Notes under the pieces: generated by a model
What the model was told of the DNA's origin: nothing
What the model saw: only the letters and a program-made list of their open reading frames with translations
The model's database searches: none
Part shown: one piece after another, positions 178 through 56,842 of the stretch
How the letters are laid out: each line of letters opens with the position of its first letter
How positions within the stretch are numbered: the stretch's first letter is position 1
Translations under genes and position numbers: made by a program
Assembly (NCBI GenBank): GCA_964585615.1
Contig: CAZPEN010000023.1
Coordinates: 1-64,000, forward strand
Origin: an uncultured Chthoniobacter sp.
GTDB lineage: Bacteria > Verrucomicrobiota > Verrucomicrobiia > Chthoniobacterales > Terrimicrobiaceae
Direction of reading: 5' to 3'
Length of the DNA: 64,000 nt

Positions 178-193
178 TGGCACGATTTTTGCC
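178..193 (+). promoter_or_regulatory. Sigma-54 (RpoN) -24/-12 promoter: TGGCACGatttTTGC
   Basis: Exact match to the TGGCACG-N4-TTGC consensus. GC of the -12 element at 191-192, 15 nt before the ATG at 207. Same strand as the downstream gene block. Confidence 0.7.
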
Positions 194-680: not shown

Positions 681-949
681 AAAAAATATCCATCCCGCTC
701 GCCGCCTCGCTTTTGCTCGTGGGCTGCGCCACGCAGATCACGGAAGGCCCCACCGGCCCTTCACGTCCGGCTCCGGTAGTCACGTCCTCCCCCGCCCCAA
801 CGCCCCGGCCCCAACCGGCGGAATCACCACGACCGACGCCGTCCCCGGTGAGCCGACCCACCCCTTACCCGATCCCCCAGAGACCCGATACAGGCACCTC
901 GCCTCTGGCCCCTTCGCCGGACCAACCGATCTGGCAACGCACCCAGTAA
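677..949 (+). CDS. small proline-rich lipoprotein (LVGCAT lipobox)
   Basis: Signal peptide plus lipobox LLLVGC. Pro/Thr/Ser-rich low-complexity mature part. Start overlaps the previous stop by 4 nt. Confidence 0.5.
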   Translation: MKKISIPLAASLLLVGCATQITEGPTGPSRPAPVVTSSPAPTPRPQPAESPRPTPSPVSRPTPYPIPQRPDTGTSPLAPSPDQPIWQRTQ

Positions 950-958
950 AGGCACTCT

Positions 959-2620
959 ATGCCTGCCGTCTCCGAGCTCAATCTGGCGCTGGTGATTCTC
1001 CGCGATGGGGCCGAGGGGGAGACCATTCCACTCAAGGGCGGAAAATTTACGTTCGGGCGCGATGCGGCGCACGATCTCACCCTGCCCGATGCCTCGGTCT
1101 CCAGAAACCACGCGGAGCTGGCCATTTCGCCAGGTGGAGTGCAACTCCGCGACCTCGGGAGCCGCAACGGCATCCGAGTGAACCGGGTTCCCCGTAAGCA
1201 GGCCAACCTCCTGCCGGGAGACACCTTCGAGATTGGTGTATTTACCTTCCGCCTCAAGGCCGGAGCGGCTCAACGGCGTGCGCCCGCGCTGCAACGCCCT
1301 TCGCCAGAGGTCGCCATCGAACAAACCGTCTCTCGCGCCTTCCCACTCCCGCAGCTGTCCCATGAGCGGCAACTCTCCACCATTTACCACGCCTGTTTCT
1401 GGCTCACGGAGAGCACGGATCCTGAGCTTCTCACCGAACGCCTTGCCCGCCTGCTTTGCGATGCGACCGATGCGGTGGAGGCGCAGTTTTATTCCGCAGA
1501 TCTCACCCTGCGCCACCGCTGCGGAGAGGCCGGAAAACCTGTTGTGAAGATCGCTGCTTTCCTTGCTGAGAAATTCCAGTCCCTGCCCGAGGCGGCCATG
1601 GTATCCGGTAAGGAGATCGCCCGGCACCAAAGGGGCGTCGGCCAGTTCAACTATCTCGTGGGCCCGATTCGCCGGGGGGGGAATGGCGATGCGGCAGCCC
1701 CTTTTATCCTCCTCTTGCGCCCCGAAGATTGGGAACCTTTCACCCTCGATCAGCGCGTGCTGTTGCAAGCCGTCTGCCAACTTTGGGCCAGGGAGACGGT
1801 CAAAATCGAAGCCACTGAGACCCTCCGCCGCGAGAACCAAGCCCTCAAGTTGAAGGCGGCCTCCCCAACCTTGCTCGGCCAGAGCGACGTCCTCCAGCAC
1901 CTGCGCCAGCAACTCAACCGCGCCGCCGCCACCAAGGCCACCATTCTGCTCGATGGCGAGACCGGCTCCGGCAAGGAAGTTGTCGCCCAATTTATCCACG
2001 AATCCAGCCCCCGTGCCGCCAAGCCCTTCGTCAAGGTCAACTGCGCCGCCATTCCCGACGGCCTCATCGAGAGCGAACTCTTCGGCCACCAGAAGGGGGC
2101 CTTCACAGACGCAAAAGACAGCCGCAAAGGCAAATTCCTTCAAGCCAACGGAGGCACCCTTTTCCTCGACGAAATCGGCGAGATGCCTCTCTCCGTGCAG
2201 GCCAAGGTGCTCCGCGCCCTCGAAAACGGGGAGATCGAACCCCTCGGCAGCGAGGCCGTGCAGAAGGTGGATGTGCGCGTCATCGCCGCCACGCACCGCA
2301 ACCTTGCCGAGATGGTCGAGCGCAAGGAATTCCGCCAGGACCTCTACTTTCGTCTCAATGTCTTCAACCTCGGTGTCCCTCCGCTGCGAGAACACGCCGG
2401 GGATATCGCCGAACTGGCCCGCCATTTCCTCGAAGCCTTCTGCCGCGAAAACGGCCTCGCCGAACTCGCCATCGCCCCCGCGGCCCTGGCCCTTCTCGAA
2501 AAACACCAATGGCCCGGCAACGTGCGCGAACTGCGCAATGTCATCCAGCGTTGCGCGATCGTTGCCGCCGGGCCGACGGTTTTGGCGGAAGACGTGAAAA
2601 AGGCGATCGGTGTTTCCTAA
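959..2620 (+). CDS. FHA-domain / GAF-like / sigma-54-interaction (AAA+) transcriptional activator lacking a C-terminal HTH
   Basis: N-terminal FHA signature ([22 protein letters not shown]...NGIRVN). Central AAA+ sigma-54 activator motifs: GETGSGKE Walker A, GAFTDA (GAFTGA-like), DEIGEM Walker B, GNVREL. Protein ends about 30 aa after the AAA+ domain with no Fis-type HTH. Confidence 0.85.
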
Positions 2621-7664: not shown

Positions 7665-7680
7665 TGGCACAGAAATTGCC
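7665..7680 (+). promoter_or_regulatory. Sigma-54 -24/-12 promoter: TGGCACagaaaTTGC
   Basis: Matches the TGGCAC-N5-TTGC consensus. In the 95-nt gap before the kinase gene. GC of -12 at 7678-7679, 13 nt before the GTG at 7692. Confidence 0.65.
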
Positions 7681-7691
7681 GGCCAGCGTAA

Positions 7692-9599
7692 GTGACAAAC
7701 GACGAACTCAATTCCTCCACGCTCAGCGGCGCGACCAGCGCCGGCGACGGTGCGTTGCCGGACGACATCGATTTCGGCCAGACGATCCGCGGGTTTGTCG
7801 AAGGGCAGGAGGCGTTTGGCCGTTATCGCCTTCGGAAGATTTTGGGCCGGGGCGGCATGGGGCTTGTCTGGCTGGCATGGGACGGACGGCTGGAGCGGGA
7901 TGTCGCGCTCAAGTTCATGCCGGAGATGGTGCGTTTGGATGCTTCGGCCATTGACGATCTCAAGCGGGAAACGCGCAAGAGCCTCGAACTCACTCATGCC
8001 AACATCGTTCGCATTCACGATTTTGCCATGGACGACTTGTCGGCAGCCATCGCCATGGAATATGTGGATGGCCCTACGCTTTCGGCTCTCCGCATCCAAA
8101 AACCGAACCGCGTTTTCGAGCCGGACGAGATTGTTGAGTGGGTGCGCCAGCTCTGCGCCGCCCTCGACTATGCACACTCGGAGGCCAAAATCGTCCATCG
8201 TGACCTCAAACCCGCCAACCTGATGCTCAGTTCCGGCGGACGCCTCAAAATCACCGACTTCGGCATCGCACGATCAATCAGCGACAGCATGAGTCGCGTT
8301 TCGGTGCAGCATCACGACAGCAGCGGCACGCTCGCCTACATGAGTCCACAGCAGGCCATCGGTGCGAAGCCTTCCTCAGCGGATGACATCTACAGCCTCG
8401 GGGCGACTCTCTATGACCTCCTTACCGGGAAGCCTCCGTTCCACAGCGGGAACATCTACGCCCAAGTTCGAGAGGTTGTGCCACCACCCATAGCCGAGAG
8501 ACGGGTGCAGCTGGACGTGGGAAGCAGCATGGTGCTTCCTGAGTCATGGGAAAAGATGATTGCAGCTTGCCTGGCGAAGGATCCTGCACACCGCCCGCAA
8601 TCGGCTGCCGAGATCTGGGAGGGTCTCAACGTACGTGTGTCCGCTGACACGTTGAAAAAATCGAGCCGCTTTCCGGTGCGGGTGGCTGCTGTTGTGGTCC
8701 TCTCCCTCATCGCTGCAGGCGCAGGCTGGTGGTTCGGCTACGAGCAGCCGCGCCAGCAGGCTGCTGCCGCACTCGCAGCCCAGGCGCAGGCCGAGGGACT
8801 CGCCCGCCAGGCCGCTGCTGCCGAGGCACAGGTTCAAAAGGAAGAAGCCGAAACCGCCGCTCGACAGGAAGCCGAGCGAAAGAAGGCCGAAGCTGCCGCC
8901 GCCGAGCAAGCCCGCATCGCCGCAGCCAAGCAGCAGCTCATCACCGAGACCCAGGATCTTGCTCAAAAGGCGCTCGCGGCCAAACAGTGGAACCAGGCAG
9001 AGTCCATTGCCGACAAACTTACCTCGCTCGACCCTCAGAATACGCAGATCGCGAGCATCCGCCAGTCTACAGTAGTCGGCCGCGAAGCCCAGCGTACCTC
9101 CGAGGAACGCGCCCGGGCGCTGCCCCCCGACCTCCCCGCCTCCGCAGCCTTCAGCACAGAAGCGATCTTCGCTCCCTCCCCCTACGCATCATACAACAAC
9201 TACTCGCAAAGTCAGATCCTTCGAAGAGCTCAGGAAAAGCTCAAATCAGCCGGGCTTTACAGCGGATCCGCTGACGGAGAATCCGGTGCAGGAACCACAA
9301 ATGCACTCATCGCTTTCCAGCGGGCAGACATGAACTTGCCTGTTTCAGGACGGTTGGATGATCCCACGCTCGCCGCACTCGGCCTCACCGGCATCGCCGA
9401 AATGACAGCGCCTACCCCCACACCACGTCCAAAACCGACCGCCACACCGAGGCCAAAGCCCGCAGGCACTACGAAGCCTCCTCCTTCCAATCCCAATAGT
9501 TCCGTGGATCCTAGAAGTGCCCTTCAAAGAAACTACGAGGCGGGATACATAGACAAAGAAACAAGAGACTTTTACCTCGAAGGTTTAAAAAACAGATAA
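7692..9599 (+). CDS. Hanks-type Ser/Thr protein kinase with TM helix, Ala/Gln/Glu-rich coiled-coil linker and C-terminal peptidoglycan-binding (PG_binding_1-like) domain
   Basis: Kinase motifs GRGGMG, VALK, HRDLKPAN, DFG, SGTLAYMSPQQ. TM segment VAAVVVLSLIAAGAGWWFG. C-terminus LKSAGLYSGSADGESGAGTTNALIAFQRADMNLPVSGRLDDPTLAAL matches the PG_binding_1 pattern. GTG start. Confidence 0.9.
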   Translation: MTNDELNSSTLSGATSAGDGALPDDIDFGQTIRGFVEGQEAFGRYRLRKILGRGGMGLVWLAWDGRLERDVALKFMPEMVRLDASAIDDLKRETRKSLELTHANIVRIHDFAMDDLSAAIAMEYVDGPTLSALRIQKPNRVFEPDEIVEWVRQLCAALDYAHSEAKIVHRDLKPANLMLSSGGRLKITDFGIARSISDSMSRVSVQHHDSSGTLAYMSPQQAIGAKPSSADDIYSLGATLYDLLTGKPPFHSGNIYAQVREVVPPPIAERRVQLDVGSSMVLPESWEKMIAACLAKDPAHRPQSAAEIWEGLNVRVSADTLKKSSRFPVRVAAVVVLSLIAAGAGWWFGYEQPRQQAAAALAAQAQAEGLARQAAAAEAQVQKEEAETAARQEAERKKAEAAAAEQARIAAAKQQLITETQDLAQKALAAKQWNQAESIADKLTSLDPQNTQIASIRQSTVVGREAQRTSEERARALPPDLPASAAFSTEAIFAPSPYASYNNYSQSQILRRAQEKLKSAGLYSGSADGESGAGTTNALIAFQRADMNLPVSGRLDDPTLAALGLTGIAEMTAPTPTPRPKPTATPRPKPAGTTKPPPSNPNSSVDPRSALQRNYEAGYIDKETRDFYLEGLKNR

Positions 9600-11367: not shown

Positions 11368-11838
11368 ATGAAAATAACAGATTTGACCGCGAAGATGAAA
11401 AAAGTCTCAGTACTTTCCGCAATCCTCTTCAGCCTTGCCTTTGCGGGGTGTGCTTCCATTTCCGATTACGACCAGACCGCATACAAGAATGCGGTTGATC
11501 TCAAGGTGGATACCCTGACTGTGATGAGTCGGGCCAATCAGCCCTATTCCTCCCAGAAAGACTCTTTGGACGCCTTGGGGGTGCAGATGGATAAGGCTTA
11601 CGAATACGACGCCGGACGACCAGTCAACCAGAAGACCCTCCAGATGTGGGATATCCTTTTGAAATCCGATGCCGCCATTCCCGAAAATGGAATCTGGCCG
11701 AAATTCGTGGAGAGGTGGCGGGCGGACGGGCGTCTCTCCGGAGCCTATCTGCAAGACAAGAAGGAAAACGTCGCCGATGCCTTCGACAAGATCATTGCCC
11801 TCGAAAGCGGCAAGTTGAAACCATCGGACATTCCCTGA
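11368..11838 (+). CDS. lipoprotein, unknown function
   Basis: Signal peptide with lipobox (LAFAGCAS). Confidence 0.5.
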   Translation: MKITDLTAKMKKVSVLSAILFSLAFAGCASISDYDQTAYKNAVDLKVDTLTVMSRANQPYSSQKDSLDALGVQMDKAYEYDAGRPVNQKTLQMWDILLKSDAAIPENGIWPKFVERWRADGRLSGAYLQDKKENVADAFDKIIALESGKLKPSDIP

Positions 11839-11844
11839 CAGCAT

Positions 11845-12171
11845 ATGGCAAAAAACAGCATTGATTGGGGCCAGGTCGGCAGCGACGTGGCGAAACTCGC
11901 ACAGAGCATCTTTTCGAGCCGCGCCAAGGCGCTGGCCAAGGATGGGATGATCTTCTTGAAGGAGGTCCAGGAGCGCGCAATTAAGTATCATCTTCAGCTC
12001 GCAACCGAGCAAATCACGAAGTCCGAATTCAACGAACTGATGCTTGACCTGAAGGCACTGGCGAAAATGGAAAAGCTCAAACAGGAGGGGCTCACCCTAG
12101 TCGCCCGTGACAAGTTTATTAACGGTGCCATCGACATCCTGATGAAAGCGGCGATTTCTGCCATTCCCTGA
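11845..12171 (+). CDS. hypothetical protein (helical)
   Basis: ORF tightly packed within the unidirectional cluster. Confidence 0.35.
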   Translation: MAKNSIDWGQVGSDVAKLAQSIFSSRAKALAKDGMIFLKEVQERAIKYHLQLATEQITKSEFNELMLDLKALAKMEKLKQEGLTLVARDKFINGAIDILMKAAISAIP

Positions 12172-12181
12172 GGAGGAGGCC

Positions 12182-12799
12182 ATGCCACTCTCTCTCCTGA
12201 ATAACACCTCGATCCGTCTCGATGAGGTGATTGCCGCCATGCGGGCGAAAAAATATCACGTATTTGACCGGGAGGACTACCAATTGAACATCGTCGGCAT
12301 CCGTCGGAGACCGTTCAAGGTGGATGTCTTCAACGATACTCTCTTCTGTTTTCACCCGTTGAACGGGCAGTGGACTTACGCGAAATACCAGATCACCACG
12401 ATTCCCGGACTCACGTATCTCAAGGAGAAATTTTATCATGAGAAGGGAACGGCCATTCTTATGCCCGGGCAATACAAGGATGCCTATGAAATCGGCAATC
12501 ATTGGGGGTATCAGGCGGTCTGCCAGAAGGACTCGGTGCGTCTGCCGGTCTATCGCGACGACAAGTTCGACGGTATCCCCGAGCTGGACGACAGAAAGCG
12601 CTTCACGGCTGGCGGGATCAATATCCACAGGGCTTCCCGACAAGGATGCACCATTCGGATCGGAGAGTACTCCGCCGGGTGCCAGGTTTTCCGGTGCGCC
12701 GAGCATTTCGATGGGTTTATGGCAACCGCCCGACGCGCCCGCGCAATGCATGGAAACTCCTTCACCTACACCTTGATCGACGAGTCGGACGTGCGGTGA
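12182..12799 (+). CDS. hypothetical protein
   Basis: ORF in the cluster. No motif I can assign with confidence. Confidence 0.4.
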   Translation: MPLSLLNNTSIRLDEVIAAMRAKKYHVFDREDYQLNIVGIRRRPFKVDVFNDTLFCFHPLNGQWTYAKYQITTIPGLTYLKEKFYHEKGTAILMPGQYKDAYEIGNHWGYQAVCQKDSVRLPVYRDDKFDGIPELDDRKRFTAGGINIHRASRQGCTIRIGEYSAGCQVFRCAEHFDGFMATARRARAMHGNSFTYTLIDESDVR

Positions 12800-12982
12800 G
12801 TTCCGCATGCTTCCGCTCAATAGCACTTGGGTGGAAAAACCATCGTGTCTCGACCGGCTATTCCGGGTTGATGGTCGAGAAGTCGGAGGTCCCGGAAGGT
12901 CCTCGGATTTTCTCTGTCATCGGTTTCCCGGATTGTCTCTTCACTGTCTCCACGGTTGAATTTTGGAGATTTGGGAGAAACT

Positions 12983-12998
12983 TGGCACGGAATCTGCC
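12983..12998 (+). promoter_or_regulatory. Sigma-54 -24/-12 promoter (near-consensus): TGGCACGgaatCTGC
   Basis: TGGCACG-N4-CTGC (GC of -12 conserved). 54 nt upstream of the ATG at 13051. Same TGGCACGGAAT as the promoter at 18894. Confidence 0.55.
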
Positions 12999-13050: not shown

Positions 13051-14592
13051 ATGGGATTCTTTACCGAACGCTGCCCGAACTGCGGGAAACCAATTTCCAA
13101 AAACGCCCAGCATTGCAACCACTGTGGCTGTCCGTCCTCCACCGCCTGGGCGAGTTGCCATTCCTGTGGCACCGCCGTGGGCGCGGACTCGAAATTCTGC
13201 TGGAAGTGCGGTTCCGAACAAAACCCGGACGCCAGGGTGAAGTTCTACGGCGACCGCTGGAGACGATCCGGTTCGGACTTCGCTGTGCGTGTGGAGTTGA
13301 ATACTCCTGAGGCCGTTCTCCACCACGGCCTTCAGGTGGACGACGGCACGCTTGCCCTGATTTTCCAGGACGGTCGGCTGCTGAGCACGCTGGAGCCGGG
13401 CTACCACACCTTCGACAACGTCCTCCAGCGGGTGCTGGGGCTGGACAAGGGCAAGTACGCCCACGCCGTGCTGCTTGACATGCGCTCGGCCGAGGTGGAC
13501 TTCTCGTTCTCCGGTTTGCAGGTGTCCGGCGGGCTGCTGGTGGATTTCCAGGCGCGGCTGTATTTTCAAATCACTGACCCGCAGGCATTTGTGGCTACGA
13601 TGGTGAGCGAGGCCGCATCAACTTTCACCACAGACGATCTCTCCCAGCGCTTCGGGGCGGAAGTTCGCGACGCCCTGCAGGGAGCCATCACCAGCCTCGA
13701 TCTCAACGACCTCCTTGTGCTGGGTGGCGTGCGGTCCCAAGTGGAGGAGGCAATGTCTGGCCCACTCCAACAGCGACTTGCGCCCTTCGGGATGCAGGTG
13801 GCGGGGTTGCGGTTGGTGGATTTCCATGGAACGGCCGTCGAAGGGGCCCGGGCCAAGCTCGGTGAACTGGCCCAACTCAACCGCGAATTCGAACTCAACC
13901 GCCGCCTCGAGGAGGCCCTCCGCCGCGAGAAAGTCGAGGCCTTCCGCAGCGAGGAGGAGGCGGGCGATTACTATTCGAAGATCACTGACGAATACGGACT
14001 CAAAGATGCAGAGCGCGAGGAGAAGAAAAAGCGTTGGGTACAGGCCGCCGAGAACCAGACGCAGGTCGAGGGGATCCGCCTCGATTACCAACTCCGCCGC
14101 CAGGAAATCCTCCACCGCCTCGACGAGCAGGCACTCCTTCACGAGCACGACTTTACCGATCTCAAGGCGAAGCTCGACCAGGACCGCCTCCGGCTCAACG
14201 AGGCGCTGGCCCACGATAAAGCACGCTTCGACCAGGAGCAGGCCCAACGACTCCATAAAGCCTCCACAAATAAAACCATCGCCGAGCAGGGTATCGACAC
14301 TCTCGTGAAGCTCAAGGAGGCGAAACTAGGGGTACGCAAGCAGGAAGACGAGCATGAGTTGAACCTCGAAAGCCAGCGCCTGCGCCTGAGAGGCGACGCA
14401 CCGCTCCAAGCCCTCATCGCCACACTGCCCGCCGAGCAGGCGGACCGATTGCTCAAACTGGCCGAGATGGAAATGCGCAAAGGGCTGAGCGCCGAGCAAT
14501 CCCTCGCGCTTGTCGCAGAAAAATCTCCCGAGATTTCTCCTGCTGTCGCCGACGCCCTGCGGGCGCGCTATGCAAACAAGGAGAAAGAATAA
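13051..14592 (+). CDS. zinc-ribbon (4 CxxC pairs) + SPFH/band-7-like domain + long coiled-coil protein
   Basis: N-terminus CPNCG..CNHCG..CHSCG..CWKCG. Middle region is beta-rich then helical, as in SPFH. C-terminal 200 aa charged coiled coil. SPFH assignment is tentative. Confidence 0.55.
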   Translation: MGFFTERCPNCGKPISKNAQHCNHCGCPSSTAWASCHSCGTAVGADSKFCWKCGSEQNPDARVKFYGDRWRRSGSDFAVRVELNTPEAVLHHGLQVDDGTLALIFQDGRLLSTLEPGYHTFDNVLQRVLGLDKGKYAHAVLLDMRSAEVDFSFSGLQVSGGLLVDFQARLYFQITDPQAFVATMVSEAASTFTTDDLSQRFGAEVRDALQGAITSLDLNDLLVLGGVRSQVEEAMSGPLQQRLAPFGMQVAGLRLVDFHGTAVEGARAKLGELAQLNREFELNRRLEEALRREKVEAFRSEEEAGDYYSKITDEYGLKDAEREEKKKRWVQAAENQTQVEGIRLDYQLRRQEILHRLDEQALLHEHDFTDLKAKLDQDRLRLNEALAHDKARFDQEQAQRLHKASTNKTIAEQGIDTLVKLKEAKLGVRKQEDEHELNLESQRLRLRGDAPLQALIATLPAEQADRLLKLAEMEMRKGLSAEQSLALVAEKSPEISPAVADALRARYANKEKE

Positions 14593-14863
14593 ATAAAATG
14601 GACTCCAGTTCCAATGACAATTCGGTTTCCCGTTGGATGGAACATCTCAGTTCCGCACTGCTTTTGCTCATGGGTGGCTGCCTGGGAGGGGGCGCGATTT
14701 TCGAGATTGTCTTTAAACGCGGAGAACCTTCCGTTTTGCGACAGGAAACATTGCTGGGAATTTTGGTGGCGGCAGCCCTCCTTCTTCCGGGGGTGGCACC
14801 AGAGTTTCGCGCAAACTAGCCAAACAAAAAATGAGAAATCAAAAATGGGGAAGCTGCAGAGAA

Positions 14864-15640
14864 ATGAAATACATTGTTTTAGCACTGCTGGGCATAGCAG
14901 GATTCTCTCGCGCGCAGGAGACAAATTCGCTTGGGATGAAACTTGTGCCGGTGCCTGGAACAAAGATCCTGATGGCGACGACGGAGGTGACGGTGGACCA
15001 ATACAAGGCGGCAGGGCTCGGGTATGAGTCGCCGAAGTTTCCGCAGGGAGGCAATCACCCTGCGGTGAACGTGAGCTGGAACGACGCGAAGAAGTATTGC
15101 GCGTGGCTGAGTAAGAAGGAGGGGAAGAAGTATCGGCTGCCGACAGATCATGAATGGAGTTGCGCTGTCGGAATCGGACATTTGGAGAATCCAGCAGACA
15201 ATCCGGCAAGCAAGAGTGAAAAGATCGTTGATGTGTATCCATGGGGAAAAGGGAAGCCGAGCGGGAAGGCAGGCAACTACATGGGGCAGGAGTGGAATTC
15301 GCCAATGGGAATCGAGACCGCTCAAAAATACGGATTCAAGCGGGGCGAGTGGAGTTTAGTTCCTGGCTATCACGACGGAGTTCTTTTCACATCGGCGGTC
15401 GGCAACTACTCACCGAATACATTTGGGATCTACGATTTGGGGGGAAACGTTTGGGAGTTGTGCGAGGACAAGTTCGGCGGGAACGGATATGATAAGAGCA
15501 TGCGTGTGCAACGGGGCGGGTCATGGGGATACTTCACCAAGGATTTTGTATTATCGTCCTCCCGTATCCGCAATGAACCAGGATCTCGCAGCGACAACAT
15601 CGGCTTTCGGGTTGTGTGTATTCCAATAGATAAACCGTGA
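14864..15640 (+). CDS. FGE-sulfatase (SUMF1/formylglycine-generating enzyme family) domain protein, secreted, paralog 1
   Basis: NHPAVNVSWNDAKKYCAWLS, RLPTDHEW, DLGGNVWE, RGGSW motifs typical of the FGE-sulfatase domain. Signal peptide. Confidence 0.8.
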   Translation: MKYIVLALLGIAGFSRAQETNSLGMKLVPVPGTKILMATTEVTVDQYKAAGLGYESPKFPQGGNHPAVNVSWNDAKKYCAWLSKKEGKKYRLPTDHEWSCAVGIGHLENPADNPASKSEKIVDVYPWGKGKPSGKAGNYMGQEWNSPMGIETAQKYGFKRGEWSLVPGYHDGVLFTSAVGNYSPNTFGIYDLGGNVWELCEDKFGGNGYDKSMRVQRGGSWGYFTKDFVLSSSRIRNEPGSRSDNIGFRVVCIPIDKP

Positions 15641-15756
15641 ATGATATGAATGAATCAAAAACGTTGGCAAAGCCAGGAATTGGAAGACAGCCTTCCGGAT
15701 TTAGTATCGAAGTGGAGAGCGAAGCGAAGCAAATGGCTTGCCGATCCGTCCGAGTA

Positions 15757-16566
15757 ATGAAAGCGAAACGCATCGGCAGGATGCGGATGCCACGATGGGT
15801 TGTCTTGGCGATGGCGCTTGTGGTGTCGGCGTCTATCGCTCGCGCGCAGGGTTTCACGAACAGCGTTGGAATGAAGATGGTTCCTGTGCCGGGCACAAAG
15901 ATCCTGATGGGGACGACGGAGGTGACAGTGGATCAATACCGGGCGGCAGGTCTGGGGTATGAGGCACCGGAGTTCGCGCAGAGCGGGAACCATCCGGCGG
16001 TGAATGTGAGCTGGAACGATGCGAAGAAATACTGCGCATGGCTGAGCAAGAAGGAGGGGAAGAAGTATCGTTTGCCGAGTGACCGGGAGTGGAGTTGCGC
16101 GGTGGGGATCGGGAATCTGGAGAGCGTGGGAGGGAGCCCGGAGAGCAAGTGCGAGAAGTTGCCGGATGTGTTTCCGTGGGGAAGCGGGAAGCCGAGTGGG
16201 AGGGCAGGGAATTACATGGGGCAGGAGTGGAAAAGTAGCTCGGCAGGAATAGCATATGCGAAATCGAAGGGTTGGAAAGAGGGGCAACTGTGCCTGGTTC
16301 CCGACTACAATGATGGACACATGTTCACGGCTCCCGTGGGAAGCTATTCACCGAACAGTCTTGGGATCTACGATCTGGGGGGAAACGTGTGGGAATGGTG
16401 CGAGGACAAATACGGAGGAAGCGGAGCAGCAAAAGCCTATCGTGTGATGCGCGGCGGGGCGTGGGGCGGTGGCGACATCTGCGGTTTGCTGTCGTCGTGT
16501 CGCGATCACGTCAATCCCGAGTATCGCGGCGGTAGCTACGGTTTTCGGGTGGTCTGTGAGGCGTGA
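15757..16566 (+). CDS. FGE-sulfatase domain protein, secreted, paralog 2 (tandem duplicate)
   Basis: About 70% identical to the upstream paralog over the domain. Same motifs. Confidence 0.8.
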   Translation: MKAKRIGRMRMPRWVVLAMALVVSASIARAQGFTNSVGMKMVPVPGTKILMGTTEVTVDQYRAAGLGYEAPEFAQSGNHPAVNVSWNDAKKYCAWLSKKEGKKYRLPSDREWSCAVGIGNLESVGGSPESKCEKLPDVFPWGSGKPSGRAGNYMGQEWKSSSAGIAYAKSKGWKEGQLCLVPDYNDGHMFTAPVGSYSPNSLGIYDLGGNVWEWCEDKYGGSGAAKAYRVMRGGAWGGGDICGLLSSCRDHVNPEYRGGSYGFRVVCEA

Positions 16567-16646: not shown

Positions 16647-17366
16647 ATGAAATGCCATTTTGGTGGTTCAAAGCGGTCGAATCGAGAAAGCCAAGCCTCT
16701 CAACAGGAACTTAACGGTGTCCGGCGGATTTCGCTACTGCCTCTTTGCGTTTTTTTGATCCTGACTTTTCTCGCGAGCCATGTCGGAGCGCAATCCTACG
16801 GCTTGGCACCAATTTATGTGGGTATTGAGAAGAACGCGATATCCGGTATTTCGGCTTCGCAGAAGACACCGATGTGGTGTTGGGCTGCTTGTATTGAGAT
16901 GGTGTTGCGGTATTACAACATTGAAATCACTCAGGAAGATGTCGTCTATCGCACCTACGGTATTGACGCGGCTGGAAATCTGCCAGTATTTGGAGCGAAA
17001 GCCCCGGAGATCACACGGAATCTAAATAACTGGAGTTTCGATCGGAATGGCAAACCTTACGTGGTTCGGGCGGCGTTGTTTCCGGGAACTCCGCGTAACG
17101 AGATTGTCATTGATCATCTCAAATCGGGAAGGCCCATTATCCTGGGATATGGACCTGATCCTGATTCCGGCCATGTCGTGGTGCTGACGGCACTGAGTTA
17201 TGTCGTGGACCAATATGGGAGGCCATATGTGACTACCTTGATTGTGCGAGATCCGTTTCCCGATAATTGGGGATTGATGGATCGAGGGCGAAAGGAATAC
17301 GTGAACGGCATGCTCCCGGCACCGATTCAATGGATGTGGATCGTGGATGCAAAACGGGCCTATTGA
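16647..17366 (+). CDS. secreted papain-like cysteine peptidase (C39-like domain)
   Basis: Signal peptide. PMWCWAACIEMVL (Cys in a C39/papain-like context) and downstream SGHVVVLTAL His. Confidence 0.55.
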   Translation: MKCHFGGSKRSNRESQASQQELNGVRRISLLPLCVFLILTFLASHVGAQSYGLAPIYVGIEKNAISGISASQKTPMWCWAACIEMVLRYYNIEITQEDVVYRTYGIDAAGNLPVFGAKAPEITRNLNNWSFDRNGKPYVVRAALFPGTPRNEIVIDHLKSGRPIILGYGPDPDSGHVVVLTALSYVVDQYGRPYVTTLIVRDPFPDNWGLMDRGRKEYVNGMLPAPIQWMWIVDAKRAY

Positions 17367-17502: not shown

Positions 17503-18771
17503 ATGTGTTGGGTTTCTGGTTGTATGAAAACAAGACCATGCCTTAGGATTGTGCGTCTAGCCTGCAAGCATTTCAATAAGTTGAGTCAGCGCGAGGTTTT
17601 CGCATTTGTTGTCATTTCTCTGGGAGGCTTGGCTGGTGGTTTTTTGAGTGATTTACGACATCCAGATCCTCTGGCAAGCCGGGAGAGCATGGATTATTTT
17701 TACCTGATTTTCGGTGTGGCTGCAGCTTGGGTTGGCGTCTACGTCGTTCTGGGGAGTGAGGTCGTCAAGCTTGTTCGCCGCTTTGCCCTGTCGGTGGTTT
17801 GTGGCTTCGCTGGCGTAGCGGTAATTGAAAGCACGCAAAGCTTTGTTGGAGTGAAGGAGAAGGTGGATTTTCAGAGTGCTTTGAATCAAGAGAAATTGAT
17901 ACAAGAAAGGATTCGACAGATTATCCGACAGCAGGAATTGCAAGTTGATGGGGCGAGAATTGAGAATAGCGCTGAAGCAAAGATCCAGGAGACGCGAAAT
18001 CGTTTAGCTCAGCTTCTTTCGATGGCAGCTGCCTATCCTTCGATGGAAACGGATGGCATGATACTTCCGACACTTTTTGTCGGCCTCGATACTCTTGAAG
18101 ACGGAGTCAAGCAAGCTCCGCGTGAGTCAGTGCAGGCACTTCGTGATCTTTCGGGATTGGAAGGTCTCTGCTTGTCGGATTACATGAAGGGTCTCCTAAA
18201 GCGACACTTGAGGAACGCGGAAACATCTCTGCAGGCAGTTGCCGCCTCTACTCCGATTCCCAATTTGGCAGGTTCTGAAGTCGCTTCCTCTCCTGCGACA
18301 GCGAAGCCCACTGCGCAAATAGGAAACATGCCCGGCAGAGGTGCATCACCCTCTCCTTCTCCAATCGGCCTTTCTACGGCTAGTCCAACGCCTGAGCAAG
18401 AATCTGCCGTGGGGTTTATCAGGGTTGCGAACTATGGCCCTCTTCAAAGTCAAAATCCAAAGTGGGATGATATTTTGATTCGCTCCGCGCAAGGAAATAA
18501 GAATCGAGGCTTCCCTAAACCAACCGGAGCGGAGCCCGAGAATGAAATGCTGGATCTGAACGCGAAATACGTTGTGGAGGCCGATATTTTTCTTCGTAGC
18601 GACTTTCCCTCAGTGAACGAGAAGGGGCTGTTATTCGCCCCCAGTATCGCCGTAATTAAAAGGGGATCTCTGGTTACAGTGACACGTGCGGCGATCAGAT
18701 CGAACAAATCGCTGTCTCAACTTTGGGCGGAAGTTTCCGTTAACCGAAACGATCTTCTTTCTGTTGAGTGA
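17503..18771 (+). CDS. membrane-anchored coiled-coil protein, unknown function
   Basis: N-terminal TM segments then long helical region. Lower GC at its 5' end. Confidence 0.45.
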   Translation: MCWVSGCMKTRPCLRIVRLACKHFNKLSQREVFAFVVISLGGLAGGFLSDLRHPDPLASRESMDYFYLIFGVAAAWVGVYVVLGSEVVKLVRRFALSVVCGFAGVAVIESTQSFVGVKEKVDFQSALNQEKLIQERIRQIIRQQELQVDGARIENSAEAKIQETRNRLAQLLSMAAAYPSMETDGMILPTLFVGLDTLEDGVKQAPRESVQALRDLSGLEGLCLSDYMKGLLKRHLRNAETSLQAVAASTPIPNLAGSEVASSPATAKPTAQIGNMPGRGASPSPSPIGLSTASPTPEQESAVGFIRVANYGPLQSQNPKWDDILIRSAQGNKNRGFPKPTGAEPENEMLDLNAKYVVEADIFLRSDFPSVNEKGLLFAPSIAVIKRGSLVTVTRAAIRSNKSLSQLWAEVSVNRNDLLSVE

Positions 18772-18893: not shown

Positions 18894-18909
18894 TGGCACG
18901 GAATTTGCC
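18894..18909 (+). promoter_or_regulatory. Sigma-54 -24/-12 promoter: TGGCACGgaatTTGC (perfect consensus)
   Basis: Exact TGGCACG-N4-TTGC. 58 nt upstream of the ATG at 18966. Precedes the tandem FHA-TM-caspase genes. Confidence 0.75.
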
Positions 18910-18965
18910 CAGAAGGCAGGCGTGACGAAACGTCCGAAGGCTATTAACTTTTCGAAGCATTTGCC

Positions 18966-20921
18966 ATGCCTGCCATAAACCCTCTCCGCATTTCCCGACT
19001 CAGCGGCTTCGGCTCGAAGCCCCCGCAGGACTTTGATCGATCTCCCGTTACCCTCGGCACAGCGTCCAGTTGTCACATTCGCTTCGATGCCGTTCTCGAC
19101 AAGGGCGTGGGGCCGCAGCATGCCCGGCTGGAGTGGAATGGAGAGGCGTGGTATTTGCTGGATGGCGGAACGCCCGCTGGCATCTGGTTAGATGGGCGTC
19201 GGCTGGAAGAACCCCTGCGGGCGGGAGGGGAGTTTTCCTTTCGGCTGGGTCAATCGGGTCCGGGAGTTTCCGTGCACGTGCTGCCAGCCAGCGTTATGTC
19301 TGAGGTCCCGGTCGCTCCGTTGCCGGTTCTTCCGCCCCCAAAAACAAAGCCACGTCTGCCAGTCGCGGGGATTGTGGTGGCAATCGTGCTTGCGGTGGCA
19401 ATCCTCGCCGGGGGTGGGGTTTTCATAGGGCGGAAGCTCGCGAACCCCAAAAATCTGGATTTCTCCGCACCAGCCCAAGAAGAGGATTTCTCACTAACCG
19501 ATCCCGTCTTTCAGGCGCAGCAGGCACAACAGCAACTCGCCTCAACCCCGCCGGGTCCGCAACCATGGGATCAGACCGGTCCGGACGAGGAGGATCTCAC
19601 CTGGCTGCCGATGGAGCCATCGTATCAATACTCAACTTATGTCCAAGGATGGACTCCCGGGAGCGGCAGCAGCCCCTTCACCGGAGATCTCTCCAGCCCA
19701 AGCCTGGCACAGGAATTTGCCCAACTCAGCATCCGCCCCCCGCAATTCGTCGAAGAACCCGGCGGTGGCCTGCCCCCCCAATCGGCGGGAGCAATCTGGA
19801 CCACGGACGACACCCGGTTGGCGGTGGAGCTGATGCTGGCGGCGGAATATGGCGCCAATCCCCCGCCAGATACAGAGGCACAGGGAGGGCTGCCAGCACA
19901 GGGAGCACCGGGCGTGTTCGTTCCGGGCAATCTTTCTCCTGAAGAGCTCCAGGCGGTCGAGGATCAGCTTGGCCGCCAGGCATCGAAGGCAGCAGGGGGA
20001 AATGCGCGGCATTTTGCAAAGACTTTGCGCATGGCCCTCGATACGGAGGCTCGCAATGCCGGACGGCAGCGCCTTGCGGCAAGTGCACGGGAGGAGGGGG
20101 CAACTTCTCCAGACGTCAGCCCGCAGGTGTGGGCGGTGATCGTTGGCATTGACGATTTTGAGAATATCAACGACATCGTGGGCTGCAAAAACGATGCCAT
20201 CGGCATGGCGAAGATTCTCATGCTGCACGGGTTGCTCCATCCCAAACGAACCTACTTGATGACCGACAAGATGCAGGGAGCCATGCGACCGACGGGAGCG
20301 AACATCAAAAGAGCCTTGAACGAGGTCCTCACCAAGGCGGGACCGAACGATATGGTGGTTTTCTTTTTTTCCGGCCACGGGGGAGAAGATCCCGCCTCGG
20401 GGGAAACCGTGTTCACCGGTGTGGACTTTACCTTCGACGATCCACTGGATACGGGGTTGACCGGCTCCGCTCTCCAGTCACTTATTAAACGCTCCGCCGC
20501 GTCCAAGTTACTCATGTTCTTTGATGCCTGCCACGCTGGCGGTTTGGCGCCACTGGGCCGGAATCCGCGGGGATTTCGCAGTGGTGTGAATCCGACTTTT
20601 CTCGATCAACTGGCCGAGGGCCGCGGGCATGTGGTGATCCGCGCCGCCGCCAAGGAGGAGATGAGCATCGGGAGCGATAAATTGAATCACGGTATTTTTA
20701 CATTTGTCACGCTGGCGGGTCTGACAGGAGGGGCGGATCGCGACAAGGATGGAATCGTGACCCTCAGCGAACTGCGACCCTACGTGACTCGGGAGACTCC
20801 GAAGCTTGCCAAGCAACTCGGCCATGACGTCTTCCATCCGAGCTTTACGAGCGGCGGACAGGCGGGTGAAATCGGCGACATTCCGCTGACGATCGTTCCT
20901 CCACCGGCACCCAAAAAATAA
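18966..20921 (+). CDS. FHA domain - TM helix - Pro/Gln-rich linker - caspase-like C14 peptidase
   Basis: N-terminal FHA (SPVTLGTASSCHIRFD..QHARLEW..WYLLDGGTPAGIWLDGRRL). TM VAGIVVAIVLAVAILAGGGVFIG. C-terminal caspase with FFFSGHGG (His) and FFDACHAGG (Cys). Confidence 0.85.
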   Translation: MPAINPLRISRLSGFGSKPPQDFDRSPVTLGTASSCHIRFDAVLDKGVGPQHARLEWNGEAWYLLDGGTPAGIWLDGRRLEEPLRAGGEFSFRLGQSGPGVSVHVLPASVMSEVPVAPLPVLPPPKTKPRLPVAGIVVAIVLAVAILAGGGVFIGRKLANPKNLDFSAPAQEEDFSLTDPVFQAQQAQQQLASTPPGPQPWDQTGPDEEDLTWLPMEPSYQYSTYVQGWTPGSGSSPFTGDLSSPSLAQEFAQLSIRPPQFVEEPGGGLPPQSAGAIWTTDDTRLAVELMLAAEYGANPPPDTEAQGGLPAQGAPGVFVPGNLSPEELQAVEDQLGRQASKAAGGNARHFAKTLRMALDTEARNAGRQRLAASAREEGATSPDVSPQVWAVIVGIDDFENINDIVGCKNDAIGMAKILMLHGLLHPKRTYLMTDKMQGAMRPTGANIKRALNEVLTKAGPNDMVVFFFSGHGGEDPASGETVFTGVDFTFDDPLDTGLTGSALQSLIKRSAASKLLMFFDACHAGGLAPLGRNPRGFRSGVNPTFLDQLAEGRGHVVIRAAAKEEMSIGSDKLNHGIFTFVTLAGLTGGADRDKDGIVTLSELRPYVTRETPKLAKQLGHDVFHPSFTSGGQAGEIGDIPLTIVPPPAPKK

Positions 20922-20923
20922 CT

Positions 20924-22600
20924 ATGAGCAGCGAACTTCAAATCACCAAGATCACGGGATTTCAGCGGGGCAAAGCGACCCGGTTTGTCGAGAGCCCCGT
21001 GGTGCTTGGCACGGCCGACACTTGCTCTCTCATTTTTGATCCCGCTTGGGATAAGACGGTTTCTGCCAAGCACGCCACAGTGGAACTCCGGGAAGGTGAC
21101 TGGTGGTTCATTGACCACAGCGAGCATGGCAGTTGGATCAACGGCCAACGGCTTTCCGCCGCCCGCAAACTGGAGCCGGTGACCGAAATCGAACTCGGGC
21201 GCGGCGGCCCAAAGATCCGGTTGGAGTTTGCCGTGGCCCCGATGTCGTCTCCTGTGCCCATGAGTCCTCCTCCTGTGCAAGCCCCGGTACCCCCTGTGCC
21301 CACGCTCCCGGCTTCAATGGGGCCAGTCAAAAGGGGATCTCGCGGATCCAAGCCCCTCGTATTGGCAGCAGGGATTATTCTTTTTCTGGGTTTGGGAGTG
21401 GCGGGGATCGTGTTTTGGAACGGCTCCAAAGAGGAACAAGCCCTGGAGGAAACTGCTCAGGAAGCCCCGCCCGACGAAGAGTTGTGCGAACTGGTCGAGG
21501 AATCCGCCCCGCAAAATCCCCCGCCTTCGGCAACGACTCCCGCGTCGTCAGCCATTGGTCGCGGCTGGGCCATCATTGCTGGCGTCAACCAATACTCCAA
21601 CGGAATCAACTCCCTCGCCATGTGTGTCAACGACGCCAAGGCGGTCGCCAAGTCGCTGGTGGACTCCGGCATCTTCCACTCGGACAGCGTGATTCTGATG
21701 ACGGACGAATCGCCTCCCGAGTTGCAGCCGACTTCGATCAATATCGAACGGATGATCAAGACCGTAGCCGCCCAGGCCAAGCCCGAGGACATTGTCTATT
21801 TCAGCTTTTCCGGGCATGGCGACTGGGACGAAGCGAAGCAAGACTCGATGATTATCACCAGCGACGCCAATCCGCAGAATCTCGAACGCACCACTCTCTA
21901 TGGCGCGACCCTGCAAAAGCTCTTCTCCGGAATCGCGGCCGAGAAGCTCATTGTCGTGCTGGACTCCTGCCACAGCGGCGGCATTCAGGTAAAGGGCCGC
22001 AAGGAAGTCCGCCAAGCCGCAGGAATCCCCGAGGCGTTTTATCAGAAGTTCACCGATTCCAAGGGGCAGATCACCGTGCGTTCCTGTGCTTTCAACGAGG
22101 TTTCCTGGGAGTCACCCGAACTGGGGCACGGGCTCTTCACCTACCATCTGGTCGCCGGGCTCACCGGAGCGGCAGATCGCGACGGGGATGGAATCGCCAC
22201 CCTTTCCGAGGTGAGGGCGTATGTTTCCGAAAAGGTCCCGGCAGACGCGGTTGCCAAATTCGGCGAAAAGCAAACCCCGAGCTTTACCAGCGGCGGCCTG
22301 CTGGGTGAGGTCGGCGACATTCCGCTCACCGTCATACCGGCCCAGCGAGCCCGACGTCTCGGCACGCTGGACACCCTGCGCCAGCGCGCCAGCGCCCTCT
22401 CCGCCCAGGACAAAATTTCCGCTCAGGAACTCGATACCATCAAAGATACCCTGCGTGTCCTCTCCGAAAAACGCCGTTTCGCTCCCGCCGAACAAGAACA
22501 GATCAAACTCACACTTCGGCTGCTCCTGGGAAAGACCACTGCAGCCGACTACCGCCTGGCCTCACGGGCACTCGGCGGCACAAAGCCCGCGTCTAAATAG
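20924..22600 (+). CDS. FHA domain - TM helix - caspase-like C14 peptidase (paralog of the upstream gene)
   Basis: FHA (SPVVLGTADTCSLIFD..KHATVEL..WWFIDHSEHGSWINGQRL). TM LVLAAGIILFLGLGVAGIVFW. Caspase FSFSGHGDWDE and VLDSCHSGG. 3-nt intergenic gap from the upstream paralog. Confidence 0.85.
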   Translation: MSSELQITKITGFQRGKATRFVESPVVLGTADTCSLIFDPAWDKTVSAKHATVELREGDWWFIDHSEHGSWINGQRLSAARKLEPVTEIELGRGGPKIRLEFAVAPMSSPVPMSPPPVQAPVPPVPTLPASMGPVKRGSRGSKPLVLAAGIILFLGLGVAGIVFWNGSKEEQALEETAQEAPPDEELCELVEESAPQNPPPSATTPASSAIGRGWAIIAGVNQYSNGINSLAMCVNDAKAVAKSLVDSGIFHSDSVILMTDESPPELQPTSINIERMIKTVAAQAKPEDIVYFSFSGHGDWDEAKQDSMIITSDANPQNLERTTLYGATLQKLFSGIAAEKLIVVLDSCHSGGIQVKGRKEVRQAAGIPEAFYQKFTDSKGQITVRSCAFNEVSWESPELGHGLFTYHLVAGLTGAADRDGDGIATLSEVRAYVSEKVPADAVAKFGEKQTPSFTSGGLLGEVGDIPLTVIPAQRARRLGTLDTLRQRASALSAQDKISAQELDTIKDTLRVLSEKRRFAPAEQEQIKLTLRLLLGKTTAADYRLASRALGGTKPASK

Positions 22601-22722: not shown

Positions 22723-23172
22723 GTGCTTGATCATGCACGCACGAAGCGCGTAACCGATCCATCCCCTCACCCGTACATTGGCGCGAGCGACGACTTCTTC
22801 GGGTTTCTTCCACAAGGTGCTCCAGGCGGTTTCCTCCCGGATCCCTTCCCGCTGTTGAGTCCTTCTGGACAAGCTCTTCGAGAAATCCCGACGATGCTCC
22901 AAAAAATGTTTGTCGGGGACGCGGGGCGGTTGCGACAGGTGTTGCTCAACCTCACGGACAATGCCGTCAAATTTACGGAAGCAGGATATGTTTTCATCGC
23001 GATTTCCAGCGAATCGCCCCTTCTCTTTTGCGTAAAGGACAGCGGGACGGGAATTATTGATGGGCGGTTCCCTGCTCGTGGAAACCAGCCCCGGATTCAG
23101 TTCCTGCTTCTTTTTCCAACTTCCGTTGGAGCCGATGTTGGAAGACTGAATTTTTGGGTTTCTAACTTTTGA
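22723..23172 (+). pseudogene. remnant of a sensor histidine kinase (HATPase_c N-box/G1-box only; no HisKA/DHp, degenerate G2)
   Basis: GDAGRLRQVLLNLTDNAVKFTEAGYVFIA...VKDSGTGI is a typical HATPase_c core. The upstream and downstream sequence is not kinase-like. Confidence 0.6.
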
Positions 23173-23318
23173 GGATCACTCGATTCTCAAAAGTCATAAT
23201 TCATGGGGCAAAATTGGGGCAAAAGCTGACCCTTTCCGCTGATTTCCTGACAATTCCTGTCGGATGTCAAAAATTGCGTTATTGCTCGCAAAGCCTCTAT
23301 TTATCAGGCATTCAGGAG

Positions 23319-23403
23319 CGGATGGGGGGGGATTCGAACCCCCGGTACCTTTCGGTACACACGCTTTCCAGGCGTGCGCAATCGACCACTCTGCCACCCA
23401 TCC
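23319..23403 (-). tRNA. tRNA-Ser (anticodon GGA), class II with long variable arm; CCA not encoded
   Basis: Manual fold of the reverse complement: acceptor GGATGGG/CCCATCC, 3-bp D stem GCA/TGC, anticodon stem CACGC/GCGTG with loop CTGGAAA, variable arm GTACC-GAAA-GGTAC, T arm GGGGG-TTCGAAT-CCCCC. Confidence 0.8.
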
Positions 23404-23698: not shown

Positions 23699-23775
23699 TG
23701 GTGCAGCCGATAGGACTCGAACCTATAACCTTCTGATCCGTAGTCAGATGCTCTATCCAATTGAGCTACGGCTGC
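23699..23775 (-). tRNA. tRNA-Arg (anticodon ACG), CCA encoded
   Basis: Reverse complement GCAGCCGTAGCTCAATTGGATAGAGCATCTGACTACGGATCAGAAGGTTATAGGTTCGAGTCCTATCGGCTGCACCA folds as a cloverleaf with anticodon loop CTACGGA. Confidence 0.85.

Positions 23776-56765: not shown

Positions 56766-56842
<77 letters not shown>

Follow-up and report, generated by a model that had tools for sequence, protein, structure and literature searches.

The window analysed here is a stretch of 64,000 nucleotides from an uncultured Chthoniobacter sp. of the Verrucomicrobiota (family Terrimicrobiaceae; contig CAZPEN010000023.1, positions 1 to 64,000, forward strand). It carries two adjacent genes, W1 and W2, whose products each join an FHA-like domain, a single predicted transmembrane (TM) helix and a caspase-type peptidase domain of family C14. 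We consider it fairly probable that W1 and W2 form a single-pass inner-membrane protease pair and are the sigma-54-dependent output of a kinase-linked mobile island, which occupies positions ~165-22600 and has every gene on the + strand. An initial annotation of this DNA had placed a phosphothreonine-reading FHA domain inside the cell and a caspase domain outside it, and had called the latter location unusual. The topology stands, whereas neither the reading of phosphothreonine (pThr) nor the rarity of outward-facing C14 domains does.

Architecture and topology of W1 and W2

The two genes and the domains of their products are laid out as follows.

18966..20921, + strand: W1, open reading frame (ORF) of 651 aa; FHA-like domain ~4-110, TM helix 136-154, linker 155-385, metacaspase-like C14 domain 386-650
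20924..22600, + strand: W2, ORF of 558 aa; FHA-like domain ~3-107, TM helix 145-163, acidic linker of 49 aa, C14 domain 212-478, tail 472-549
~20727-20774 and ~22166-22213: EF-hand-like loops of W1 (residues ~588-603) and W2 (residues ~415-430)

The TAA stop of W1 is followed by 2 nt and then by the ATG of W2. Both domains score above the Pfam gathering thresholds in both proteins, with 35.6 bits in W1 and 41.1 bits in W2 for FHA (threshold 20.7) and with 64.9 and 78.9 bits, respectively, for Peptidase_C14 (PF00656; threshold 21.4). BLASTP aligned the caspase parts with 40% identity over 264 aa (E = 5e-62) and the FHA parts with 32% identity over 100 aa (E = 1e-14), and the Kyte-Doolittle profile of each protein contains a single peak (W1 136-154, mean 2.92; W2 145-163, mean 2.72), no other window exceeding 1.31. 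The tandem paralogs of FHA, one TM helix and C14 domain that had been noted from the DNA are thus real, and the 35-40% identity given for them agrees with these alignments. The first paralog had also been credited with a Pro/Gln-rich spacer of 230 aa; the length is right, the W1 linker measuring 231 aa, and the label is roughly so (A 13%, P 11%, G 9.5% and Q 9%, with an acidic net charge). In the AlphaFold2 model this linker is mainly of low confidence or disordered, with a single short conserved helix near 280-295, and the C-terminal tail of W2 (~80 aa, 472-549) is helical.

When 1.84 billion cluster representatives were searched exhaustively with HMMER and the hits classified locally, 23 FHA-caspase proteins emerged, 15 of which are representatives at 50% identity. 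The FHA-TM-caspase architecture, for which a database check had been proposed at the outset, therefore exists elsewhere and is rare (15 clusters among the 1.84 billion representatives). All 23 proteins have the FHA domain at ~1-107, then exactly one hydrophobic segment and then the caspase domain, and four further proteins that combine the FHA-TM module with another C-terminal part also have one hydrophobic segment each. Throughout these 27 members, an FHA of ~105 aa without a signal peptide precedes the lone hydrophobic segment, which comprises 19-20 residues with Kyte-Doolittle values of 2.3-3.2, is long enough to span a membrane and is modelled as a helix in W1. In bacterial membrane insertion, a signal-less folded N-terminal domain stays in the cytoplasm and the hydrophobic segment behind it acts as a signal anchor; a folded FHA of ~105 residues that lacks a signal peptide would hence be fixed in the cytoplasm, with the hydrophobic segment as signal anchor. 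Summed over the 27 proteins, the 15 residues flanking the segment have a net charge of +69 before it and +12 after it, a bias that is strong in proteins of the W2 type and weak in those of the W1 type.

The C-terminal part of the module is exchangeable. The outer domain is Trypsin_2 in two proteins from related loci (L007:11948-13210 and L050:12600-13910) and in the proteins P0006 and P0012, and in P0044 the caspase domain is followed by a fervidolysin-type prodomain and a Peptidase_S8 subtilase. Trypsin-type and prodomain-bearing subtilase proteases are typically exported and work outside the cytoplasm. Because there is one TM segment, a charge bias, a signal-less FHA and a swap of the outer domain to exported protease types, we conclude that W1 and W2 very probably adopt an N-in/C-out topology with the caspase outside the cytoplasm, which bears out the proposal that the caspase lies across the membrane from the FHA.

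One could instead place both domains in the cytoplasm, with the hydrophobic stretch as a re-entrant or peripheral anchor and the caspase acting inside, like most studied orthocaspases. The flank charges of the W1-type proteins are ambiguous and AlphaFold2 confidence is low around the TM segment, as such an arrangement would allow. We nevertheless regard it as very improbable, given that the segment is strongly hydrophobic, of spanning length and helical in the W1 model, that exactly one is kept in every member, that the overall flank charges are so unequal and that the C-terminal domain is exchanged for Trypsin_2 or joined by a prodomain-bearing subtilase; the neighbouring genes, moreover, encode secreted or wall-active proteins. 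With an N-in/C-out topology, the FHA-TM-trypsin siblings (L007:11948-13210, L050:12600-13910 and P0006) resemble DegS-type proteases, which illustrate envelope-stress proteolysis and likewise consist of an N-terminal anchor and a periplasmic trypsin-fold protease. Unlike DegS, the FHA-TM-proteases have no PDZ domain and carry a large cytoplasmic FHA, and the protease of the window has a caspase fold.

The catalytic dyad (His298/Cys349 in W2 numbering) is invariant in the 11 aligned FHA-caspase homologs, where it is embedded in the motifs FSGHG (His) and D[AS]C[HQR]xGG (Cys), so that the degenerate dyad envisaged in the initial annotation as an argument against its reading is not what the alignment contains. 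Foldseek matched the W2 model to metacaspases and MALT1 (E ~1e-10 to 1e-11), which corresponds to a caspase/hemoglobinase fold, and on these grounds W1 and W2 look like active metacaspase-type enzymes. With the prokaryotic metacaspases or orthocaspases (MEROPS C14, clan CD; GSU0716 and MaOC1, and also the eukaryotic Yca1 and AtMC4) they have in common this fold, the His-Cys dyad motifs and a loop, basic and flexible, that follows the catalytic Cys and is the usual place of autoprocessing. In W2 this loop is a basic, low-confidence segment of the AlphaFold2 model (350-368), a candidate autoprocessing site that is only suggestive. The FHA-caspase proteins also have an invariant EF-hand-like loop, ADxDxDGxVTLSE (DxDxDGxVTxxE), possibly a Ca2+ site separate from the known metacaspase Ca2+ site. 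The same loop occurs in the unrelated bacterial C14 proteins P0007 and P0011.

That an extracytoplasmic caspase domain is unusual for C14 peptidases was overstated, since TM helices were present in 15% of the 671 prokaryotic metacaspases of one survey, which counted 46 with an N-terminal TM helix or signal peptide and concluded that many are extracellular (PMC3501461). Many bacterial metacaspases thus resemble W1 and W2 in having a TM helix or signal peptide. What sets W1 and W2 apart from the surveyed proteins is the N-terminal FHA, with one TM helix between it and the protease, and further the conserved tandem of two FHA subtypes and the sigma-54-type promoter; an FHA fusion is nowhere mentioned in the survey of 671 proteins (PMC3501461). 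The unusual part is the FHA fusion together with the surrounding system, and not the outward-facing C14 domain.

FHA domains and the phosphothreonine pocket

The cytoplasmic location of the FHA domain was very probably anticipated correctly; its assignment as a reader of phosphothreonine finds no support in the motifs. Canonical pThr-binding FHA domains are defined by GR, SxxH and NG motifs (PMC3162421), and we aligned the W1 and W2 FHAs with OdhI and GarA and checked all 23 module sequences for these motifs. W1 and W2 match the FHA family and its beta-sandwich fold. The position of the GR Arg is occupied by T in 19, by S in three and by A in one of the 23 sequences, and by R in none, whereas OdhI, the sigma-54 activator of the island (see below) and P0012 have Arg there. 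The Asn of the NG motif is likewise found in 0/23 sequences (E, A, G, S, T, H, Q or V instead), its Gly being kept in 21/23. For the SxxH motif, His is present in 22/23 and Ser in 6/23, W2 having Ser and W1 having Gly. As the GR Arg and the NG Asn are absent from all 23 sequences, pThr reading by W1 and W2 is not supported, and their FHA fold has, judging by these residues, lost the canonical phosphothreonine pocket.

There is a precedent for this. The N-terminal domain of MxiG (MxiG-N), also a cytoplasmic FHA fold, has an incomplete set of these motifs and fails to bind pThr (PMC3162421). MxiG belongs to the SctD family (MxiG/YscD/PrgH) of type III secretion systems (T3SS), the members of which are likewise single-pass inner-membrane proteins with a cytoplasmic FHA fold, incomplete pThr motifs and a periplasmic C-terminal part (PMC3162421). 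By analogy with MxiG/YscD, we infer that the W1 and W2 FHA domains may act as docking or oligomerisation modules. W1 and W2 are not SctD proteins themselves: both stay below the cutoff of PF16697 (Yop-YscD_cpl; 21.1 bits for W1 and 31.9 bits for W2, cutoff 33.2), their C-terminal domain is C14 and not a set of periplasmic ring domains, and no T3SS genes were found in the window or the related loci. After SctD of the T3SS, the degenerate FHA of the pair would be the second case of an FHA that sits at the inner membrane face and works independently of phosphorylation. When the FHA module by itself served as the profile in a search of a word-indexed protein database, the matches were four unrelated short FHA proteins, and the family's own members were missed.

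Genuine pThr reading by these FHAs, in which the caspase proteins would dock on a Thr that the kinase has phosphorylated in a partner or in itself, has several observations in its favour: the fold is that of a classical FHA, kinase genes are genomically linked, these kinases carry a conserved Thr-containing N-terminal motif (DDxDFGQTIRGF), W2-type proteins retain both Ser and His of SxxH, and the distant FHA-TM-trypsin protein P0012 has fully canonical motifs. We find it unlikely all the same, given the replacement of the phosphate-binding Arg by T, S or A in every one of the 23 sequences, the complete loss of the NG Asn, the additional loss of the SxxH Ser in the W1 type and the failure of MxiG-N, with its incomplete motif set, to bind pThr (PMC3162421).

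Promoters, activator, kinases and related loci

The pair has its own dedicated promoter, as first noted, of the sigma-54 type; it had been called perfect and is better described as near-perfect, since its core matches TGGCAC-N5-TTGC exactly at 18894-18908 and its final C stands where the consensus has A/T. The elements on which the regulatory part of our proposal rests are listed here.

18894..18909, + strand: sigma-54-type -24/-12 element TGGCACGGAATTTGCC, 57 nt before the W1 ATG
18918..18927, + strand: conserved GGCGTGACGA box, 8-10 nt downstream of the -12 element (8-12 nt over the loci)
178..193, + strand: sigma-54-type motif upstream of the gene for a small secreted protein (207-680), which is followed by lipoprotein and activator genes
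7665..7680, + strand: sigma-54-type motif upstream of the receptor kinase gene
12983..12998, + strand: sigma-54-type motif with one mismatch, TGGCACGGAATCTGCC, upstream of the zinc-ribbon/Band_7 gene
959..2620, + strand: FHA-sigma-54 activator of the AAA+ enhancer-binding type (Pfam Sigma54_activat E = 3e-71, FHA E = 2e-14)
7755..9599, + strand: receptor Ser/Thr kinase (Pkinase E = 8e-47, PG_binding_1 E = 4e-12)

The island thus carries four sigma-54-type promoters, three exact and one with a single mismatch. The exact core TGGCAC-N5-TTGC was observed three times in the window, against an expectation of 0.14, and the three copies (178, 7665 and 18894) are all on the + strand, intergenic, co-oriented and just upstream of + strand genes. 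Upstream of the pair, the related loci L003-L005, L006, L008 and L050 have the motif in the same place, which makes five independent loci with the window, and L007 has it in degenerate form; exact motifs also precede the Band_7 genes of L003, L048 and L050, and in L050 a motif at 7049 precedes the kinase gene at 7089. Six otherwise diverged upstream regions (window, L003, L006, L007, L008 and L050) were aligned, and their only conserved blocks are the -24/-12 element and, 9-12 nt downstream of it, the CGTGAC box, the core of GGCGTGACGA, which is invariant in all six. This box could be the transcript start region or an operator. Behind the kinase promoter at 7665 there is a looser version of it, GTGAC. 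An Rfam search at gathering thresholds returned three tRNAs only and no element in the 5' leader of the pair.

Sigma-54 regulation has been reported for Verrucomicrobiota (PMC12316311). The product of the activator gene contains the Walker A motif GETGSGK, the GAFTDA loop and the Walker B motif DEI, and its FHA is canonical (fGR, vSRnHA and GSrNG; match to OdhI with E = 5e-12). It has no DNA-binding helix-turn-helix (HTH), the protein ending right after the AAA lid. FHA-type sigma-54 activators, with FHA fused to the sigma-54 AAA+ domain as in the island protein and its canonical pThr motifs, are known in Myxococcus (Jelsbak 2005, as cited in PMC12288465), and we consider the 959-2620 protein a candidate activator of the island promoters.

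The kinase of the window starts probably with TTG at 7755 and combines an N-terminal DDIDFGQTIRGF motif, a kinase domain that looks active from its catalytic motifs, one TM segment, a coiled coil and a PG_binding_1 ectodomain. In the window, L007, L008, L048 and L050, kinases of this kind, 48-63% identical to it and with the same N-terminal motif, are encoded no further than 10 kb from the pair. The related loci are composed as follows, the W1-type outer domain being given first.

L003-L005: caspase + caspase; activator (L003 and L004), Band_7, pYEATS and FGE genes; conjugation genes adjoin
L006: caspase + caspase; FGE genes; conjugation genes adjoin
L048 and L049: caspase + caspase; zinc-ribbon/FHA protein, Band_7, small secreted protein and PEGA kinase
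L007, a Terrimicrobiaceae metagenome-assembled genome (MAG): caspase + trypsin; arrays of kinase paralogs
L008, a Terrimicrobiaceae MAG: caspase + W2-type FHA-TM gene; arrays of kinase paralogs
L050: W1-type FHA-TM gene + trypsin; two kinases, M15 and Band_7

In every locus with both genes, the W1-type FHA-TM-X gene precedes the W2-type FHA-TM-protease gene. The kinase arrays flank the FHA-protease genes and consist of four to six paralogs (L007, 14-9873 and 15983-21550; L008, 351-7515) that have the same kinase domain and the N-terminal DDLDFGQTIRGF motif (DDxDFGQTIRGF), and the ectodomains in L007 all differ (PEGA and PG_binding_1, YARHG, seven WG repeats, OmpH-like, SLBB and FGE-sulfatase), which resembles a diversified receptor repertoire. 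A further conserved partner, a protein of ~565 aa that begins with a zinc ribbon and ends with an FHA domain, is encoded in L048 (185-1891, - strand) and L007 (18296-19990) and is absent from the window; it has the same zinc-ribbon head as the zinc-ribbon/Band_7 protein.

Conjugative type IV secretion genes (TraG/VirD4-like, TrbL, CagX and TrbI) lie directly downstream of the pair in L003 (12828-15268) and L006 (9090-12772), and the FHA-caspase module may travel on integrative conjugative elements. Full-length matches were found in 2 of 185,579 species-representative genomes, both of Terrimicrobiaceae. The named occurrences of the island are so far all in Verrucomicrobia, and the family is rare, its members known to date all coming from uncultured bacteria. 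In the open-access literature, we found no description of the FHA-TM-C14 fusion, of the pair of two subtypes or of the sigma-54 regulon with a kinase array; the components are all of known kinds, and it is their combination that has not been described there before.

Proposed function and surroundings of the pair

We propose the following chain of events. An envelope cue would switch on the receptor Ser/Thr kinase through its peptidoglycan-binding ectodomain, and the pThr made by the kinase would be read by the canonical FHA of the HTH-less sigma-54 activator. Transcription would then proceed from the four -24/-12 promoters of the island, and the FHA-TM-protease pair would be made and inserted into the membrane. 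There, the pair would be assembled through its cytoplasmic FHA-like domains, which would join one another, the kinase or the zinc-ribbon/SPFH scaffold, and proximity would switch on the outer proteases, which would cut periplasmic or envelope proteins, probably after Arg/Lys. We infer this regulatory chain, along with activation by assembly, the substrates and the outcome, be it envelope remodelling, defence or suicide. In its widest form, which we offer tentatively and hold to be rather unlikely, the proposal is that of an undescribed trans-envelope signalling and execution system of Verrucomicrobia, in which arrays of receptor kinases with exchangeable ectodomains (PG-binding, PEGA, YARHG, WG repeats, OmpH-like and FGE/lectin-like) sense envelope or invader cues, the HTH-less activator relays them to the four promoters and heteromeric, membrane-tethered periplasmic caspase, trypsin or subtilase enzymes are gated from the cytoplasmic side by degenerate FHAs.

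Should the proposal hold, it would constitute a bacterial pathway from a receptor kinase to a caspase that acts in the periplasm. Bacterial caspase homologs are abundant, and very few have a known trigger or substrate. W1 and W2 place a caspase-fold protease in a defined genetic circuit with a candidate sensor, a candidate relay and conserved promoters, so that the island could reveal how a periplasmic caspase gets switched on. The exchange of caspase, trypsin and subtilase on a constant FHA-TM stalk illustrates, in addition, the modular evolution of membrane-tethered proteases.

A number of observations weigh against W1 and W2 as the sigma-54-dependent output of a kinase-linked island. The activator gene was seen in the window and in the L003 lineage (L003 and L004) only, no sigma-54 motif lies upstream of the pair in L048, and no kinase was seen within the available stretches of L003 and L006. 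Since the caspase-linked FHAs have no pThr pocket, a direct phospho-link from kinase to protease is without positive support. The flank charges of the W1-type proteins are nearly balanced, AlphaFold2 models the TM and linker regions, and in W1 also the C-lobe, with low confidence, and all family members come from metagenomes or MAGs. PADLOC assigned no defence system; its matches, to models for kinases (PD-T4-6 and others), caspases and RtcR/PspF AAA proteins, are all generic and at the level of domains, so that a defence role is unsupported.

Known modules that lead from a Ser/Thr kinase to FHA proteins (PpkA-Fha1 of type VI secretion systems; PknB-FhaA/GarA of mycobacteria; Rv1747) also comprise a receptor-type kinase with an ectodomain and co-encoded FHA proteins. 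The island differs from them in that no PP2C phosphatase was seen among its genes, that its activator has no DNA-binding domain and that its output is a membrane-tethered, predicted periplasmic protease pair with degenerate FHAs.

The island might serve abortive infection, as an anti-phage or anti-invader system with membrane-tethered proteases as suicide or effector enzymes, a purpose that is possible though somewhat unlikely. It would be compatible with our proposal and differ from it in biological purpose only. The exchange of caspase for trypsin and the co-occurrence of FGS, kinase, FHA and alpha/beta-hydrolase-caspase proteins are as in PMC7159879 and PMC8195603, a pYEATS gene is found in L003 and as a remnant in the window, and the island adjoins tRNA genes and has a lower GC content than its neighbours, its relatives lying beside conjugation genes. 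The conflict systems of Kaur et al. (2020, 2021) indeed use the same domain vocabulary, with caspase-for-trypsin exchange, alpha/beta-hydrolase-caspase, pYEATS and a mobile context. By contrast, the island genes, as scanned with Pfam, contain none of the defining NTPase cores (the MoxR-vWA ternary, STAND and GAP1/DO-GTPase cores) and no effector-associated adaptor domains (EAD or Death-like); the PADLOC matches are generic, and the peptidoglycan-binding and hydrolase genes suit envelope maintenance equally well. Neither a sigma-54 regulon nor FHA-TM-protease fusions are described in PMC7159879 and PMC8195603. A link to ternary MoxR-vWA systems was considered and rejected: the MoxR/DUF58 genes of the window, at ~32-37 kb, lie on the opposite strand, beyond the tRNAs and ExbBD, and are not conserved near the relatives.

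Clan CD domains often serve as maturation or autoprocessing proteases. The caspase domains could accordingly be processing enzymes for co-encoded exported proteins (the FGE-like proteins, the C39-like peptidase, wall hydrolases or the P0044 subtilase), and it fits this role that a prodomain-bearing S8 domain directly follows the caspase domain in P0044 and that several secreted proteins are encoded just upstream of the pair. We judge it quite improbable: the exported genes upstream vary from locus to locus while the pair is conserved, and the conserved cytoplasmic FHA and the pairing of two FHA types would be left unexplained.

The remaining genes of the island and of its right edge are listed below.

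207-680, + strand: small secreted protein, conserved in L003 (88%) and L048 (61%)
679-948, + strand: probable lipoprotein, read from the DNA, without a Pfam match
2639-4438, + strand: alpha/beta-hydrolase-like + C14 protein, 599 aa, no TM helix (Peptidase_C14 E = 4e-26)
4445-5758, + strand: CHAP-domain protein (Pfam)
5704-7596, + strand: multi-TM protein
10353-11168, + strand: PG_binding_1 + M15 peptidase (Pfam)
11368-11838, 11845-12171 and 12182-12799, + strand: small ORFs
13051..14592, + strand: zinc-ribbon + Band_7/SPFH protein (Pfam), 95% identical to its L003 ortholog
14831..16566, + strand: two tandem secreted FGE-sulfatase (C-type-lectin-like 'FGS') proteins (Pfam E = 6e-30 and 1e-30)
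16647-17366, + strand: secreted C39/C70-like papain-fold peptidase, upstream of the pair
17503-18771, + strand: multi-TM protein of 422 aa, immediately upstream of the pair
22723-23172: HATPase_c fragment of 149 aa, probably a truncated histidine kinase, at the right island edge
23318-23403 and 23699-23775: tRNA-Ser and tRNA-Arg, adjoining the HATPase_c fragment at the right island edge

The 2639-4438 protein is the third caspase homolog of the window. Its N-terminal alpha/beta-hydrolase-like region contains HSLGS (a GxSxG motif), its full-length homologs, with 38-40% identity, come from Sphaerotilus (L014), Planctomycetales (L021) and a Verrucomicrobiota MAG (L034), and PMC7159879 names an 'alpha/beta hydrolase-caspase' pairing to which it corresponds. 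The Band_7 protein also occurs in L048, L049 and L050 and is a conserved partner of the pair. The FGE-like proteins have signal-peptide-like N-termini and orthologs in L003 and L006, and in L007 the domain is fused to a kinase; the C39-like peptidase and the 422-aa TM protein are found only in the window lineage (L001 and L002). Between the Band_7 and FGE genes lies a pYEATS gene remnant (14598-14786), which matches residues 1-66 of the pYEATS protein of L003 (254 aa) with 94% identity, the remaining part of the gene being deleted in the window lineage.

Three antisense ORFs, 824-2509(-), 11407-12012(-) and 12119-12826(-), were rejected as genes, as they have no Pfam match and tblastn against L003 together with inspection favours the + strand; their places are taken by the activator gene (959-2620) and by the small + strand ORFs listed above (11368-12799).

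The HATPase_c fragment next to the tRNAs and the step in GC content, from 0.567 in the island to 0.604 next door, suggest that the right edge of the island is an integration site. No att-like repeats of the tRNA-Ser/Arg region turned up in the rest of the window when both strands were searched with 16-mers. A second mobile-element trace occupies 56767-58333, where a MobA/MobL relaxase gene (57050-58333, - strand, E = 8e-36) comes after a tRNA-Met gene. In a position unrelated to the island, 50759-56251 (+ strand) encodes a bacterial alpha-2-macroglobulin of 1830 aa with MG2, bMG3, A2M_BRD, A2M and bMG10 domains, a type of protein that acts as a broad-spectrum periplasmic protease trap.

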